A DNA stretch of 45,085 nucleotides from a virus (Duplodnaviria > Heunggongvirae > Uroviricota > Caudoviricetes), in the IMG/VR virus record IMGVR_UViG_2718217859_000005, one strand, 5' to 3'. Shown here in pieces: positions 12,154 through 17,489 of this stretch (its first letter is position 1; every line of letters starts with the position of its first letter). The position numbers and the translations under genes are program-made. The notes beneath the pieces are model-generated. The model was not told the DNA's origin. It saw only the letters and a program-made list of their open reading frames with translations, and made no database searches.

Positions 12154-12396
12154 ATGACTTTTACCCCTGAACAATTACGCAAACAGGCGCAGGAAATGCT
12201 GCGACAGGCGGAACAACTGGAAAAATCAGGCGTAACAAAAGATGCCATTCGTCGGGATATGGTACCCGCGCTCAGAGAACTGATGCAGGCAAAACACCGC
12301 GCACAAAAAGCAGTGGATGAGCTGGTGGATTGTGTGGCAGAGCTGGAAACCAAAGTTGGAAAGTTTGAAAAACTAGTGCAGGAGGTACTGCGCTGA
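12154..12396 (+). CDS. Hypothetical coiled-coil protein
   Basis: Track ORF 12139..12396; the first ATG is at 12154 and a TTG at 12139 has a GGAG RBS. Highly charged helical sequence. Confidence 0.35.
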
Positions 12397-12761
12397 TGCG
12401 TGATATTCAGATGGTTCTTGAGCGTTGGGGGGCGTGGGTGGCAAATAACCACGAAGATGTTACCTGGTCGTCGATTGCTGCGGGATTCAAAGGACTGATT
12501 CCGTCAAAGGTTAAGTCACGTCCGCAATGTTGTGACGATGACGCGATGATCATTTGTGGTTGCATGGCTCGTCTGAAAAAGAACAACCGTGACTTGCATG
12601 ATCTGCTCGTGGATTATTACGTTGGGGGAATGACTTTTATGGCGCTTGCAAGGAAACATGGACGTTCAGATTGCTGGGTTGGTCGTTTGTTGCAAAAAGC
12701 AGAGGGGATCGTGGCTGGTATGTTAATGATGTTGGATGTCAAACTAGAGATGGAATATTAA
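12396..12761 (+). CDS. Q: Late-gene antiterminator Q-like protein (small Phage_antitermQ type)
   Basis: 121 aa with a Cys cluster ([12 protein letters not shown]); last gene of the early-right operon immediately before the late region; resembles the small Q proteins of E. coli cryptic lambdoid prophages as recalled. Confidence 0.6.
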
Positions 12762-12928: not shown

Positions 12929-14116
12929 TTACTCCATGCTAAGTGAATCCTGATAGCGCTTAAATGCCTCCGCGAAAGCTAGAGCAGCATCAGCATTTGA
13001 TACCATGTATTCTTCTGTAATGCCTGTTTGGGACTGGAAATATAACTTTCCATAAATGCAAATTGGGATTTGATAGTTATCTTTAAATCGTCGGTCTGGT
13101 GAGCCATCTTTATTTGTTTTTGCCCATGTATGCCCAGCTATGCTGGCATCACTCGGAACACCATCCTCTTCATGGAACCCTTGATGCTGCGCATTAATTT
13201 GTAATTCCCGTAAGTCAATCAGAGCAAATGCCCCATCGGGGCGAGGAATTACAGCAATACCCGGATAAAGCAATATATCGTCGCCATTGACATTTTCAAA
13301 TCGCATTGCTCTTCCAGTAAAACGAATTAGATCTGTTGAAGCGAAATCAAATACGACTGGATGACGATCAACTGCTCGTGTAGCTAACGTCCTTTCTGCA
13401 AACTGATCTATAGCTTTATCTGCGGTAATATCCCATTTTTTGATACTTGATTTTAAAATATCGAAAGCACGAATCATTGCTGCATAAGCCCGCTGTGAGG
13501 AATCGCTGGTTTCGAAATTAATGACGATTTTAGTGTTATCTTCCCAGGATACAAGACGAGATACTTCTGCTTGTATTTGTGGTAGCGTTGCTTCAAGTTC
13601 TGCAATGCGACGTTTATAAAACCATCGAAACAGGCTTGATTTACGTCGAGCCAATTCACTCTTTTGTCTTGATTCTTCTGCAAGAGCCTCTTGTAAGTCA
13701 GATGCTATTTCCGCTCTTTGTTCTCGTGCTTTAACGATCAAGTCTCGTAAAGGTAAAAGAGATGTACTTGTCAAGGCCTCTACTGAGGCACTGGAGATTT
13801 CATTCATGCCTGTTTGTGGCATGTACATTTTTGCGTTTGATGGGGTGTTGTCTGAAATTAACTCGGGTGCATCAATATGAGATTCTACAGACGACGGATT
13901 TAGCTGAATGGTTGTGGATGGTTTGTCTTTGTATGGTAAACGAGGGGATGTATACGATAAACCAGATCCTGGTAACCCTAGAGTTGCTTTAATTCCTTTT
14001 TGGTTAACATTAACTGTGGCTCCGGGGACACCAAAACTTGCGCTTACCCCATGTTTACCGATGTTAAGGCGTACTCCGGGGAAAATGGTAAAAGTTTGTC
14101 TGAAGCGAAGAGACAT
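12929..14116 (-). CDS. DUF4236-like N-terminal domain protein with central coiled coil and unknown C-terminal domain
   Basis: 395 aa; AGGGA RBS. N-terminus MSLRFRQTFTIFPGVRLNIGKHGVSASFGVPGATVNVNQKGIKATLGLPGSGLSY matches the DUF4236 pattern as I remember it; central segment is charged and helical. Convergent with Q. Confidence 0.7.
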   Translation of the reverse strand: MSLRFRQTFTIFPGVRLNIGKHGVSASFGVPGATVNVNQKGIKATLGLPGSGLSYTSPRLPYKDKPSTTIQLNPSSVESHIDAPELISDNTPSNAKMYMPQTGMNEISSASVEALTSTSLLPLRDLIVKAREQRAEIASDLQEALAEESRQKSELARRKSSLFRWFYKRRIAELEATLPQIQAEVSRLVSWEDNTKIVINFETSDSSQRAYAAMIRAFDILKSSIKKWDITADKAIDQFAERTLATRAVDRHPVVFDFASTDLIRFTGRAMRFENVNGDDILLYPGIAVIPRPDGAFALIDLRELQINAQHQGFHEEDGVPSDASIAGHTWAKTNKDGSPDRRFKDNYQIPICIYGKLYFQSQTGITEEYMVSNADAALAFAEAFKRYQDSLSME

Positions 14117-14146
14117 AAGATAATCCCTGTGTAGTAATGTCTAAAG

Positions 14147-14169
14147 TTACATTCCATACTGGAATGTAA
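14147..14169. promoter_or_regulatory. Perfect 9-bp inverted repeat (TTACATTCC-5 nt-GGAATGTAA) in the promoter/5-prime region of the DUF4236-like gene
   Basis: Seen directly, 31-53 nt upstream of the ATG at 14116, within the AT-rich divergent intergenic region 14117-14454. Confidence 0.45.
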
Positions 14170-14454
14170 TACTGCGATGAGACACGAGGCTCATTAAGGA
14201 TTTTTGCATTTTGCTGACATAAATTCTATAAAAATTATGGTGATAAACGTTTTACAATCGTAAAAAAACAAATATGCTGTTAAGAGTGGTACTACGCCAC
14301 ACAGCTTAAACCTGCCGTCGAGCGGTTTTTTTGTACCTGTAAACCTAGTGCAGTACAGTAAACTCGCTGGTGGTTGTGAATACTGACTTTTTATCTTGCT
14401 GGCTTTTTAGACAAGAGTTATTGGTATGTCATGTTAACCAGAAGGGAAAAAGAC

Positions 14455-14652
14455 ATGCTAAAACAGCAGGATATGACCGAAACCGCCAGAGTGGTGTTTA
14501 ATGAATTAAGCGTCACCGAACCGGCGACCGTCGGGGAAATTGCGCAGAATACTTACCTTTCACGCGAACGCTGCCAGTTAATACTGACTCAGCTTGTTAT
14601 GGCGGGTCTGGCAGATTATCAGTTCGGTTGTTACAGACGTCTTCCGCAGTGA
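14455..14652 (+). CDS. Small winged-helix regulator, PapI/FaeA-like
   Basis: ATG at 14455 with an AAGGGA RBS (track ORF starts at 14431). About 66 aa; pattern ...ATVGEIAQNTYLSRERCQLILTQLVMAGL... resembles PapI-family regulators. Confidence 0.45.
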   Translation: MLKQQDMTETARVVFNELSVTEPATVGEIAQNTYLSRERCQLILTQLVMAGLADYQFGCYRRLPQ

Positions 14653-14788
14653 AGGCTTTTTAATTCGTGGTAATGGGCGGCTGGTGGGTGTTAGCGGCAC
14701 CTGTCAGTCATTTGCTTATGTGTTGATGAGAATTTACTTTTTGGGGCTATAATTAAGCTAACCAATTGCTAATTAAAGTAAAATTATA

Positions 14789-15502
14789 ATGGATGTTGTC
14801 TGTTCAGTTATCATGGTTTGCTCCCCAATTAATATTTTTCTTGAAAAGGATACGTTGTCACTTAAGCCCGGCTCAGTCGTTCTGGCCACCAAATGCATCA
14901 GGGAGCTTTTCCTTATGCATTATGGCAAAGTAAAAATTGTCGATATAAGCCATTCTATAGTAAGTCAATATCTGGAAAGCCAGCATAAGCTGACAAGAGG
15001 TCCTCTGACTGACATTCCACTTTACTTGTTGCTGGACCCCAACAATCCTGCGCTGGCTGCAGCTTTAATTACCAGCCAGAGATTTTCCGGAGAGACCACG
15101 GATATGTTTCTTATGATGGCCTGCCTGTCGCTGTTTGAATCAGATGAACGGATGTCATTATTTTTAAGTGGATGTGTATCCAGTATAAGTGTCAAAGTCA
15201 GAGCGATTATTCAAACAGATATATCATCAAGCTGGACGCTTGGTGCGATTGCTCTACAGTTGCATATGAGTGAGAGCTTGTTAAAGAAAAAACTCAAGGA
15301 TGAAGGTCTCAGGTTCAGTAATTTGTTACTTGAGGAACGGATGCGGGTTGCTGTAAATATGTTATGTTCCCGACATGGATATGGACAGGCTGTAGCAGAA
15401 AAATGCGGTTATTCAAGTAGGTCCTACTTTATCTCTGTATTTCACCGCTATTATGGCTTCCCGCCAGACAGATATGTATCTATGCAAGGGCTTGATTTTT
15501 GA
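14789..15502 (+). CDS. AraC-family transcriptional regulator (Rns/AggR-like size and layout)
   Basis: C-terminal AraC-type double HTH (LGAIALQLHMSESLLKKKLKDEG... and ...VAEKCGYSSRSYFISVFHRYYGFPPDRY); AT-rich gene; true start may be an internal Met. Confidence 0.75.
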   Translation: MDVVCSVIMVCSPINIFLEKDTLSLKPGSVVLATKCIRELFLMHYGKVKIVDISHSIVSQYLESQHKLTRGPLTDIPLYLLLDPNNPALAAALITSQRFSGETTDMFLMMACLSLFESDERMSLFLSGCVSSISVKVRAIIQTDISSSWTLGAIALQLHMSESLLKKKLKDEGLRFSNLLLEERMRVAVNMLCSRHGYGQAVAEKCGYSSRSYFISVFHRYYGFPPDRYVSMQGLDF

Positions 15503-15528
15503 TTTCATCTGATTATTATTTTCGGCCC

Positions 15529-15604
15529 GGCCCTTTAGCTCAGTGGTGAGAGCGAGCGACTCATAATCGCCAGGTCGCTGGTTCAAATCCAGCAAGGGCC
15601 ACCA
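15529..15604 (+). tRNA. tRNA with CAU anticodon (Ile2/lysidine-type or Met), ileX-like
   Basis: 76 nt; 7-bp acceptor stem GGCCCTT/AAGGGCC, anticodon loop CTCATAA, T-loop TTCAAAT, encoded CCA. Closely resembles E. coli ileX as recalled. Confidence 0.85.
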
Positions 15605-15605
15605 A

Positions 15606-15682
15606 CCGCCACTAGCTCATCAGGAAAGAGAGTCAACCCTTTAAGTTGAGAGTGCGAGGTTCGAGTCTCCGGTGGCGGTCCA
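15606..15682 (+). tRNA. Degenerate tRNA-like element (possible pseudo-tRNA; anticodon-loop CCTTTAA)
   Basis: Perfect acceptor stem (CCGCCAC/GTGGCGG) and anticodon stem (TCAAC/GTTGA), but a mismatch in the D-stem and in the T-stem, and C instead of U at position 33. Confidence 0.4.
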
Positions 15683-15684
15683 GT

Positions 15685-15760
<76 letters not shown>

Positions 15761-15763
15761 TAT

Positions 15764-15838
<75 letters not shown>

Positions 15839-16305: not shown

Positions 16306-16731
16306 ATGTTTGGTATTTTCAAAAAGAAAACCCGCAAGGCCATTACCGAAGTGAAGAAGATGGAGAACCGCGACGCAGTGGAGGCGACCGTCTGGGGTGC
16401 GTATTCCATTGCATATGCTGACGGCACCTGTGACGCGAAAGAAATCGCGGTACTGGAGAAAACCATTGCAGCACTTCCTGCCTTTGCGCCGTTCTCGGGT
16501 GAGATTGCACAAATGAGTGCAAATATCCGCGCCCGTTATGAAGCATCGCCGCGTTCTGCCAATGCCGAAGCCCTCCGCCAGCTGGCTGATATTGCAGGTA
16601 CTGATGACGCAGTTAATGTGCTGTGCCTGTGTCTGGATATCGCTGACCAGGATGGTATTGGTCCGGATGAAGAAGCACAGCTCAAGAAAATTGCTCAGGC
16701 GCTGCAGCTACCACTGGAGCAGTACCTGTGA
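16306..16731 (+). CDS. TerB-like domain protein
   Basis: 141 aa; AAGGA RBS. All-helical pattern aligning by eye with TerB (VEATVWGAYSIAYADGTCDAKEIAVLEK...; ...VLCLCLDIADQDGIGPDEEAQLKKIAQAL). Confidence 0.65.
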   Translation: MFGIFKKKTRKAITEVKKMENRDAVEATVWGAYSIAYADGTCDAKEIAVLEKTIAALPAFAPFSGEIAQMSANIRARYEASPRSANAEALRQLADIAGTDDAVNVLCLCLDIADQDGIGPDEEAQLKKIAQALQLPLEQYL

Positions 16732-16892
16732 AAAGTGCGCGCCTTGTGCTGGCTGCCATCCTGCTGTTTCTGGTAGTGGCAGTGGATTTCACCGGACGGC
16801 TGATGTCGGTACTGGCAGATGGTGTGCTGGTGGCGGGGATGGTGATAATGGTGTTGCCTTTGCTGAAGAGTGTAAAAAATACACAGACGTGA
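16728..16892 (+). CDS. Small hydrophobic protein (54 aa, GTG start overlapping the TerB-like stop)
   Basis: ORF found by eye (V/MKSARLVLAAILLFLVVAVDFTGRLMSVLADGVLVAGMVIMVLPLLKSVKNTQT); two predicted TM segments. Confidence 0.3.
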   Translation: MKSARLVLAAILLFLVVAVDFTGRLMSVLADGVLVAGMVIMVLPLLKSVKNTQT

Positions 16893-17086
16893 AATGTTAA
16901 ATCCATCACAATTAAGTTGATTGGGCATTGCTGGTTGACGGAGCTTTTGTTAGAAAAAATTTGCATGGTGGATCCCCCCGGGTGGTGGGCATATGAGTGA
17001 TGTATGTTTCTGTTCTGCTCCTTTATTATGCTGATTCGGGTACTGATACTGAATTCATCGGGAGGCACCCGGCACCATGCAAGCAT

Positions 17087-17109
17087 GCCCCTCTCCTGAG
17101 GGGCTTTTT
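17087..17109 (+). terminator. Rho-independent terminator
   Basis: Hairpin GCCCCTC-TCCT-GAGGGGC followed by TTTTTA. Confidence 0.5.
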
Positions 17110-17153: not shown

Positions 17154-17489
17154 TTATGGCCTGTGTCGTTTTAGTCCGTAGGGGCATATTTGCAGAATGC
17201 AACGGTTATTAAAGCATTCATTAAATACGTTATCTGAATTTGCAGGGCATTCCTGGCTGTTTTTGATTAAATCCCAGAATCTTTTATTGAATGGTACAAC
17301 GTTGTAAATGGTTACAGGTAGCACTTTGTTATTGAGTACGATACCTGTGTGAGTCAGCGTAAATATACTTTCAGGAGGTAAGAAAACATCCGATTGATAC
17401 CAGATTATTAATTTTATTTTACTCCATATGGCTGAAAAAGATATTCCACATGATGGCTGGATAACTGTGTCAATCACAATCCACTTCAT
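17154..17489 (-). CDS. Hypothetical Cys-rich protein (111 aa)
   Basis: Track ORF with a good AAGGA RBS 7 nt upstream of the ATG at 17489; AT-rich; Cys-rich C-terminus ([27 protein letters not shown]). Confidence 0.35.

Follow-up and report, generated by a model that had tools for sequence, protein, structure and literature searches.

Which functions do two neighbouring, co-oriented open reading frames (ORFs) of a lambdoid prophage encode, and do they act together? They lie on the plus strand at 14431-14652 (73 aa) and 14789-15502 (237 aa) of the window, the 45,085-nucleotide stretch of viral DNA (IMG/VR record IMGVR_UViG_2718217859_000005) that was analyzed. An earlier note, made from the letters alone, had taken them for a pair of transcriptional regulators carried as prophage cargo: a PapI/FaeA-like winged-helix protein and an AraC-family protein resembling Rns or AggR, with targets elsewhere in the host chromosome. 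Both ORFs are real. The reading that is considered likely is a different one: the larger gene adds a third allele to the Psr regulators, carried with its own promoter on a cassette in the late leader of a prophage at yecE and acting as an activator of gadE and hdeA, and the small gene is not its partner.

The window belongs to a lambdoid prophage that is inserted at yecE. The prophage of the bovine E. coli strain OkiPb01701 is identical to the window over the stretch compared. The Q antiterminator is of the phage-82 type and is 81% identical to that of the Sakai prophage Sp4 (ECs_1084). The position given previously, between Q and the tRNA cluster, is correct for both ORFs, with the addition that a DUF4236 gene on the opposite strand also separates Q from the small ORF. 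Genes for TerB and DUF3927 follow the AraC gene and tRNA block. No fimbrial, effector or pch/PerC genes were found in the window or in the rest of the prophage beyond it, as the earlier note had stated for fimbrial and virulence operons in the window, and the prophage contains no stx. The PADLOC defence models gave no meaningful match for the DUF4236 protein, the small ORF, the AraC protein, TerB or IraM. The features of the locus are listed below.

Table 1. Features of the prophage late region, in window coordinates.
Feature	Position	Strand	Remarks
Q antiterminator, phage-82-like type	12396..12761	+	Pfam Phage_antitermQ, E 1.9e-51
DUF4236 gene, 1.2 kb	12929-14116	reverse	between Q and small ORF
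Candidate late promoter P_R' (TTTACA-16-TATGCT) and start of qut/leader	14251..14278	+	promoter-like site
tR'-like intrinsic terminator, hairpin and T7	14314..14333	+	position conserved behind four Q types
Small conserved late-leader gene, 65 aa (73 aa from ATG at 14431)	14455..14652	+	PHROG 331, SfV orf47 family
Terminator-like hairpin and T-run over small-ORF stop codon	14639..14661	+	
Remnant 5' part of conserved methylase leader	14664..14720	+	hairpin 14679-14709; Chi octamer 14680-14687
psr cassette, AT-rich, ~800 bp, in place of methylase gene	~14720..15522	+	alignment with methylase-bearing loci
Promoter-like element, perfect TATAAT -10, poor -35	14726..14753	+	~35 nt before AraC start
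Psr-family AraC/XylS regulator, 237 aa	14789..15502	+	N-terminal β-rich domain and C-terminal double helix-turn-helix (HTH)
tRNA cluster, four genes: CAU (Ile2/Met), UUU Lys (weak), UGU Thr, UCC Gly	15529..15838	+	

[quoted passage not shown] Its double HTH is matched by the profiles HTH_AraC (E 5e-13; 49.3 bits for a Pfam cut-off of 26.6) and HTH_18 (E 2.2e-10; 41.1 bits for a cut-off of 33.6). The best NCBIfam models were YdeO, over the full length (E 4.7e-30), and GadX. The scores of 105 bits for YdeO and 90.8 bits for GadX fall far under the respective equivalog cut-offs of 348 and 500, indicating that the protein is the ortholog of none of GadW, GadX, YdeO and AppY. These chromosomal and DLP12 regulators of acid resistance nevertheless have the same two-domain architecture. 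Full-length identity amounts to 35% with GadW of K-12, 31% with YdeO and 30% with AppY, and to 36% with ECs_0287 of Sakai. All of these belong to the regulators of gadE/AR2, and they share with the window protein an N-terminal motif, M-x-x-x-C-S-V-I. Direct comparison with GadX of K-12 gave 44% identity, in the DNA-binding domain only.

The AlphaFold model (pLDDT 71.5) consists of a β-rich N-terminal domain and a C-terminal domain of seven helices. The latter superimposes onto the DNA-binding domain of GadX (3mkl) with a TM-score of 0.92 and 42% identity. Structural analogy over the full length was found in the PDB only with Rns, CsvR and ToxT (Foldseek E 6e-11 to 1e-6), which are of similar size. 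Their global TM-score is nevertheless only 0.41, and the sequence similarity is restricted to residues ~110-230 (66 bits for Rns) at ~20% identity, without fimbrial context in the prophage. The Rns/AggR-like assignment of the earlier note and its fimbrial framing are thus not supported, as homology over the full length is to GadW, PatE-like proteins, YdeO and AppY; the sequence comparison with this type was made with Rns.

The AraC gene is under purifying selection. Its dN/dS is 0.19-0.26 over the whole gene; the DNA-binding domain gives 0.13-0.19 and the N-terminal domain 0.27-0.57. Relaxed or diversifying selection, which the similar DNA and protein identities had suggested, is rejected on the values for the whole gene. 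With a GC content of 0.419, against 0.506 for the window, the gene is AT-rich.

Much closer relatives of the protein are encoded by prophages of E. coli O157. It aligns without gaps over 237 aa to ECs_1087 of Sakai, with 89.0% identity, and is 91.6% identical to a second O157 paralog, EDL933_RS10010; these two are 90.7% identical to each other. The gene ecs1087 has been named psrA, for a prophage-encoded type III secretion regulator that activates gadE (PMC13502914, a paper of 2026), and PsrB is reported in reviews to be 90% identical to PsrA (PMC10877973; PMC8565820). Since the identity between the O157 paralogs agrees with the published value, and the window protein stands at 89-92% from both, the latter is recognized as a third Psr allele. 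The assignment of the paralogs to PsrA and PsrB rests on the equivalence of ECs_1087 and psrA together with their 90.7% identity, the mapping of z1789 and z2104 to loci being uncertain: in the resequenced EDL933 genome, the prophage at potB/potC that carries nleL, espN and espK contains no AraC gene where psrA (z1789, OI-50) was sought.

The genomic setting is shared as well. In Sakai Sp4, Q (ECs_1084) is followed in turn by a CAAX protease gene, the small ORF (ECs_1086), the AraC gene (ECs_1087) and the tRNA genes ileZ-argN-argO, and the window is colinear with this locus at ~91% DNA identity across both genes and both intergenic regions, including the promoter region. The EDL933_RS10010 locus has the same layout, followed as in the window by TerB and DUF3927 genes. 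The order Q, small ORF, AraC gene and tRNAs is thereby common to the window, Sp4 and the EDL933 prophage, with TerB in some. The window protein thus belongs to the Psr clade both by its close identity to the named proteins and by its location in the late regulatory region of a prophage. It nevertheless differs from a simple copy of either, as it is as distant from each O157 paralog as these are from each other. The tRNA genes also differ (Ile2-Lys-Thr-Gly instead of ileZ-argN-argO), and so does the host prophage, which is found at yecE in a bovine isolate and lacks effector loci and pch. According to reviews, prophages with psr genes also tend to encode effectors and Pch regulators; Sp4 indeed carries pchA, and in the EDL933 prophage there are nleG7 and a gene of the PerC family. 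Their absence from the prophage studied here bears on an association, not on a molecular criterion.

Among 5,426 complete E. coli genomes, 725 (13%) contain psr copies at 80% DNA identity or above, with a median of two per genome; most are O157, O111, O103 and O145 strains. Phage phiSTEC1575 has a 99.6%-identical copy directly upstream of stx2k; a literature search on this phage returned nothing relevant.

According to reviews, PsrA and PsrB raise the levels of GadE and YhiF, and thereby repress type III secretion through an indirect effect on the LEE; PsrB makes cells more acid-resistant and binds to the promoters of gadE and hdeA, and PatE acts likewise at hdeA (PMC10877973; PMC8565820). AppY, another AraC protein of prophage origin, acts on gadE. 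PatE (z0321) is, like the window protein, an AraC-like regulator from a prophage, activates gadE and hdeA, and is homologous over the full length, including the N-terminal motif. Its probable counterpart in Sakai, presumed to be ECs_0287, is nevertheless the 36%-identical protein mentioned above and is encoded in Sp1 beside thrW, outside a late leader. By homology to PsrA and PsrB, whose loci have the same architecture, the window allele should activate gadE and hdeA and indirectly repress the LEE. The earlier suggestion of targets at other places in the host chromosome is supported by the action of these relatives on gadE, yhiF and hdeA. The idea of prophage-to-host crosstalk was right, but it had been published for the Psr family in 2011-2015.

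The window protein could instead have acquired another specificity within the Psr clade. Its targets would then be host genes other than gadE and hdeA, or genes of the phage itself, for instance the neighbouring tRNAs or late genes. About 10% of its amino acids have diverged. Residues K167 (I or T in the O157 proteins), D171 (N) and R211 (W in ECs_1087) are located in or next to the predicted recognition helices, so that its DNA targets could differ from those of the O157 proteins. The N-terminal domain evolves faster, and the effectors and Pch regulators reported to accompany psr genes are missing. Against this, PsrA and PsrB are equally divergent from each other and both act on gadE and yhiF, and relatives as remote as the PatE-like protein (36%) and AppY (30%) still converge on gadE or hdeA. 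A changed specificity is therefore regarded as unlikely, and gadE and hdeA are retained as the expected targets.

The small ORF belongs to the PHROG 331/SfV orf47 family, to which it is assigned by a profile match (E 1.2e-37) and by its conserved position. In many lambdoid phages of Enterobacterales it is the first ORF after Q and the terminator. The SfV protein is 87.5% identical and is encoded at the same position, directly after Q and the terminator; the difference lies downstream, where a PF01555 DNA methyltransferase gene follows orf47 in SfV and the psr cassette follows in the window. Conservation starts at Met9, which is preceded by GAAGGG and is also the start called by PGAP. The true start is therefore probably at 14455, giving 65 aa, and not at 14431 as first proposed. 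The dN/dS is 0.03-0.12 with respect to close relatives and 0.41 with respect to the distant cdtI homolog; the gene is real and, like the AraC gene, under purifying selection. Its GC content (0.48-0.50) is close to that of the window, so that of the two genes, both described previously as AT-rich, only the AraC gene is.

The similarity to PapI and FaeA comes down to small size and a possible winged-helix fold. The FaeA profile (PF04703) matched neither the window protein (E≤1) nor any of 24 homologs (E≤10), and a search of all PDB sequences with a profile of the family (E≤10) retrieved no PapI chain. Weak matches to generic winged-helix Pfam families (DprA_WH, best E 7e-6; TrmB; MarR_2) were obtained for the window protein and all 24 homologs. 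The AF2 model has a three-helix core of low confidence (pLDDT 63), with which Foldseek returned no significant match, and no PapI among the best 50 of 54 (E≤10); at this confidence of the model, the fold search is uninformative. The small protein is a probable winged-helix protein; the PapI/FaeA likeness proposed for it is not supported at the profile and PDB-sequence level, and no fimbrial operon is found nearby. PapI, moreover, works together with PapB and Lrp and is not known to pair with an AraC protein, which weakens the premise of a PapI-AraC pair.

The distribution of the two genes was compared. In the phage collection, the small ORF was present in 55 records and a Psr-type AraC gene in one. 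The records with the small ORF comprise Stx2a, Stx2c and Stx2d phages, phiP27, SfV, cdtI, mEp460 and phages of Klebsiella, Citrobacter and Hafnia. At loci whose AraC proteins are only 77%, 64% or 59% identical, the small ORF is still at 95-98%. The two genes can also be separated, by a methylase gene in one locus (L008), and by a methylase gene, tRNAs and a TolA-like ORF in another (L006). A further 103 small-ORF loci were collected from IMG/VR and from species-representative genomes, 93 of them with enough flanking sequence. A PF01555 DNA methyltransferase gene follows the small ORF in 88 of the 93, starting ~154 nt downstream, and psr in one; the viral sample is biased towards near-identical small ORFs, and the 23 genome loci, which are unbiased, gave the same picture. 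The loci surveyed are from Escherichia, Klebsiella, Kluyvera, Salmonella, Citrobacter, Pseudocitrobacter, Buttiauxella, Scandinavium, Enterobacter, Phytobacter, Mixta and Plesiomonas. The small ORF that precedes ECs_1087, the copy named psrA, carries a frameshift in Sakai Sp4. The two genes compared here do not form a pair, and the small ORF is an unrelated conserved phage gene.

It follows that a PapI-like co-regulator working with an Rns/AggR-like activator on a distant fimbrial or virulence operon is very improbable. That the genes are adjacent and co-oriented, that the small protein gives weak winged-helix signals, and that the AraC protein is built of two domains like Rns, CsvR and ToxT (Foldseek E 6e-11) agree with such a pair. 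It is largely refuted by the lack of any FaeA or PapI match by profile, PDB sequence or fold (the last among the best 50 of 54 matches of the pLDDT 63 model), by the independent occurrence and divergence of the genes and the presence of others between them, by the frameshift upstream of ECs_1087, and by the closer full-length relationship of the AraC protein to GadW, YdeO and PatE. The reading as a Psr allele next to an unrelated phage gene is thus kept.

The sequence upstream of the small ORF has the arrangement of a late promoter region. The segment 14225-14310, covering ~80 nt before the first hairpin, is common only to phages with the same type of Q and differs behind other Q types. From the tR'-like hairpin onward, the sequence is alike in all phages compared, and a rho-independent terminator is annotated at this position in SfV. 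A Q-type-specific segment followed by common sequence is the pattern of P_R'/qut and tR', from which we infer that the late operon begins with the small ORF. The promoter-like site within this segment is a probable P_R'. A second terminator-like hairpin overlaps the stop codon of the small ORF; in Sakai, phiSTEC1575, Salmonella and others its sequence has changed, but the hairpin persists.

The AraC gene is contained in a segment with sharp boundaries. Identity with the methylase-bearing loci ends at ~14720, exactly where the AT-rich segment with the TATAAT box begins, and resumes at ~15523, immediately upstream of the first tRNA. Ahead of the AraC start, a TATAAT or TATACT box recurs at a constant distance whatever the context, even behind the 3' end of a methylase gene. 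The sharp junctions and the -10 box that travels with the gene indicate that psr is a cassette of ~800 bp that has its own probable promoter and replaces the methylase gene. A moron, an independently transcribed piece of cargo, would have a deviant base composition and a promoter and terminator of its own. The gene has a GC content of 0.42 against 0.51, sharp junctions around it and a conserved -10 box in a putative promoter; no terminator follows it, since the first tRNA starts 27 nt later. No Shine-Dalgarno sequence is evident before the AraC gene. Operator-like inverted repeats around both genes are only short and unconvincing. The prophage small RNA HnrS raises psrA expression; it was sought here, with no Rfam match at 14100-14800, and the published account gives no usable position or sequence.

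A separate observation concerns the region between the small ORF and the methylase gene. In the methylase-bearing loci it forms a leader of ~125 nt that is more conserved than the flanking coding sequence. It is predicted to fold into an enclosing helix with internal hairpins: 98% of the positions are paired, against 23-46% when the partners are slid. There are 22 double-change cells, a number reached in none of 500 shuffles, and one clearly covarying pair. Rfam contains no match for the leader, and a literature search on the module of small ORF and methylase returned nothing relevant. The invariant arm of the leader contains a Chi octamer. The window, where only the 5' part is kept, has nine Chi sites for 1.8 expected, eight of them on the plus strand, and two, at 14366 and 14680, flank the small ORF. 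The module of small ORF, structured leader and methylase gene is conserved across lambdoid phages from at least a dozen genera, and the window has only its first half.

It can be asked whether the probable winged-helix protein and the Chi-containing leader form an undescribed control device of the late leader, which would normally gate the methyltransferase gene and now gates psr, the two genes being coupled through capture. The 5' part of the leader, including its hairpin, is kept in all psr-bearing loci examined. The cassette junction nevertheless cuts off the 3' half of the leader and with it the strand that closes the outer helix; the retained hairpin has gained extra G-U pairs, and the small ORF is frameshifted in Sp4. 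Control of psr by such a device is accordingly held to be improbable, and the existence of the module in this role is rated just as low. If it were true, a phage device of the late leader would gate a regulator of host acid resistance and virulence, the two genes would be a functional pair after all, and the putative module would extend over the lambdoid phages of Enterobacterales, including many Stx2 phages.

For the Psr allele on its own cassette, DNA targets, promoter use and timing of expression are matters of prediction. By homology to PsrA and PsrB, the C-terminal double HTH would bind the chromosomal gadE and hdeA promoters and raise yhiF. The acid-resistance regulon of GadE would be switched on, and type III secretion would be lowered indirectly in LEE-positive hosts. 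In the lysogen, psr would be transcribed from its own promoter-like element. Upon induction, RNA polymerase modified by Q would start from P_R', read through the terminators and co-transcribe psr and the tRNAs. The cassette has taken the place of the DNA methyltransferase gene that normally follows the small gene, the conserved first gene of the late leader.

As a finding, this is an ordinary one: a new allele of a known prophage regulator, which leaves the current understanding unchanged. The side observation on the small ORF, the leader and the methylase gene may outrank it in interest. The identification of the allele has a practical use for annotation, as Psr-type proteins are labelled in RefSeq only as "helix-turn-helix domain-containing protein". 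Psr-type regulators illustrate the rewiring, by prophages, of central circuits for stress and virulence in pathogenic E. coli, and the Psr clade is now extended to a toxin-free and effector-free prophage at yecE in a bovine isolate.

Between the small ORF (14455-14652), which encodes a probable winged-helix protein, and the phage DNA methyltransferase gene lies a leader of ~125 nt whose conservation, across at least a dozen Enterobacterales genera, exceeds that of the genes on either side. A multi-helix RNA fold is predicted, with 98% of cells paired. Covariation was found at one pair (CG/UA/AU/UG), and a search of Rfam returned no match for the leader. In the window, it is cut in half by the junction of the psr cassette, the AT-rich insert holding the Psr-family AraC/XylS gene.

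The Chi octamer GCTGGTGG occurs nine times in the window against 1.8 expected, a count reached in none of 100 shuffles, and eight of the nine sites are on the plus strand. Two sites flank the small ORF, the second being ~35 nt upstream of the psr cassette's left junction. The Chi sites may be tied to the mosaic swapping of cargo here, and may also bear on why the small-ORF region is nearly identical in phages that otherwise differ.

When the profile of the small ORF family was compared with PDB sequences, the best match was weak and not significant (E 0.2). It was to the N-terminal winged-helix dimerisation domain of SAM-dependent methyltransferases, which is curious, as the usual neighbour of the small ORF is itself a methyltransferase gene.

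In E. coli O157:H7 Sakai Sp4, the small ORF ECs_1086, 5' of psrA, carries a 1-bp deletion that alters its last third; probably, ECs_1086 is non-functional there while psrA is functional. Reviews assign psrA (z1789) to OI-50. No psr/AraC gene was found in the potC-potB prophage of resequenced EDL933 (L004; NZ_CP008957.1, 1628000-1677999), which bears nleL, espN and espK. This absence, against the OI-50 placement, may stem from an error in the Z-number mapping or in the original assembly.

Upstream of the small ORF, the part of a segment that lies 5' of the common terminator hairpin co-varies with the type of Q antiterminator across phages. This co-variation places the probable P_R'/qut site ~1.5 kb downstream of Q. 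The DUF4236 gene, on the reverse strand, is inserted between Q and this probable promoter; in cdtI and Stx2a_WGPS2, that position is taken by other genes on the reverse strand. Transcription from P_R' to tR' would be expected to yield a short RNA of ~50 nt.

Coordinates of the features (window positions unless a locus is given)
Feature	Coordinates	Strand	Remark
Q-linked segment	14225-14333
Leader, window copy	14664-14720		5' part only
Leader, intact copies	L012:2717-2865; L015:3214-3363		comparison loci; plus ~55 further loci
ECs_1086	L003:18344-18583		Sakai Sp4
Chi, flanking small ORF	14366-14373; 14680-14687	+
Chi, other	4237; 8907; 9560; 12321; 16826; 19393	+
Chi, other	8807	-
tRNA set	15529-15838		CAU, UUU Lys, UGU Thr, UCC Gly
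TerB-family protein	16306-16731		between tRNAs and holin
DUF3927	16728-16892		between tRNAs and holin
sRNA family STnc100	16934-17109		strong match, 93.7 bits; between tRNAs and holin
IraM homolog	17154-17489	-	between tRNAs and holin

The window has an Ile2/Met-Lys-Thr-Gly set in place of the ileZ-argN-argO tRNAs that follow psr or the methylase elsewhere, as in Sakai and phiSTEC1575 among other loci. The CAU tRNA is called Ile2 by PGAP and Met by ARAGORN. The Lys tRNA has a poor Rfam score of 33 bits, where the other three reach 65-72, and PGAP leaves it unannotated in the genome that carries the identical prophage. Further cargo follows the tRNAs, including a homolog of IraM, an anti-adaptor that stabilises RpoS. 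With Psr counted in, the prophage may carry several modulators of the stress response.
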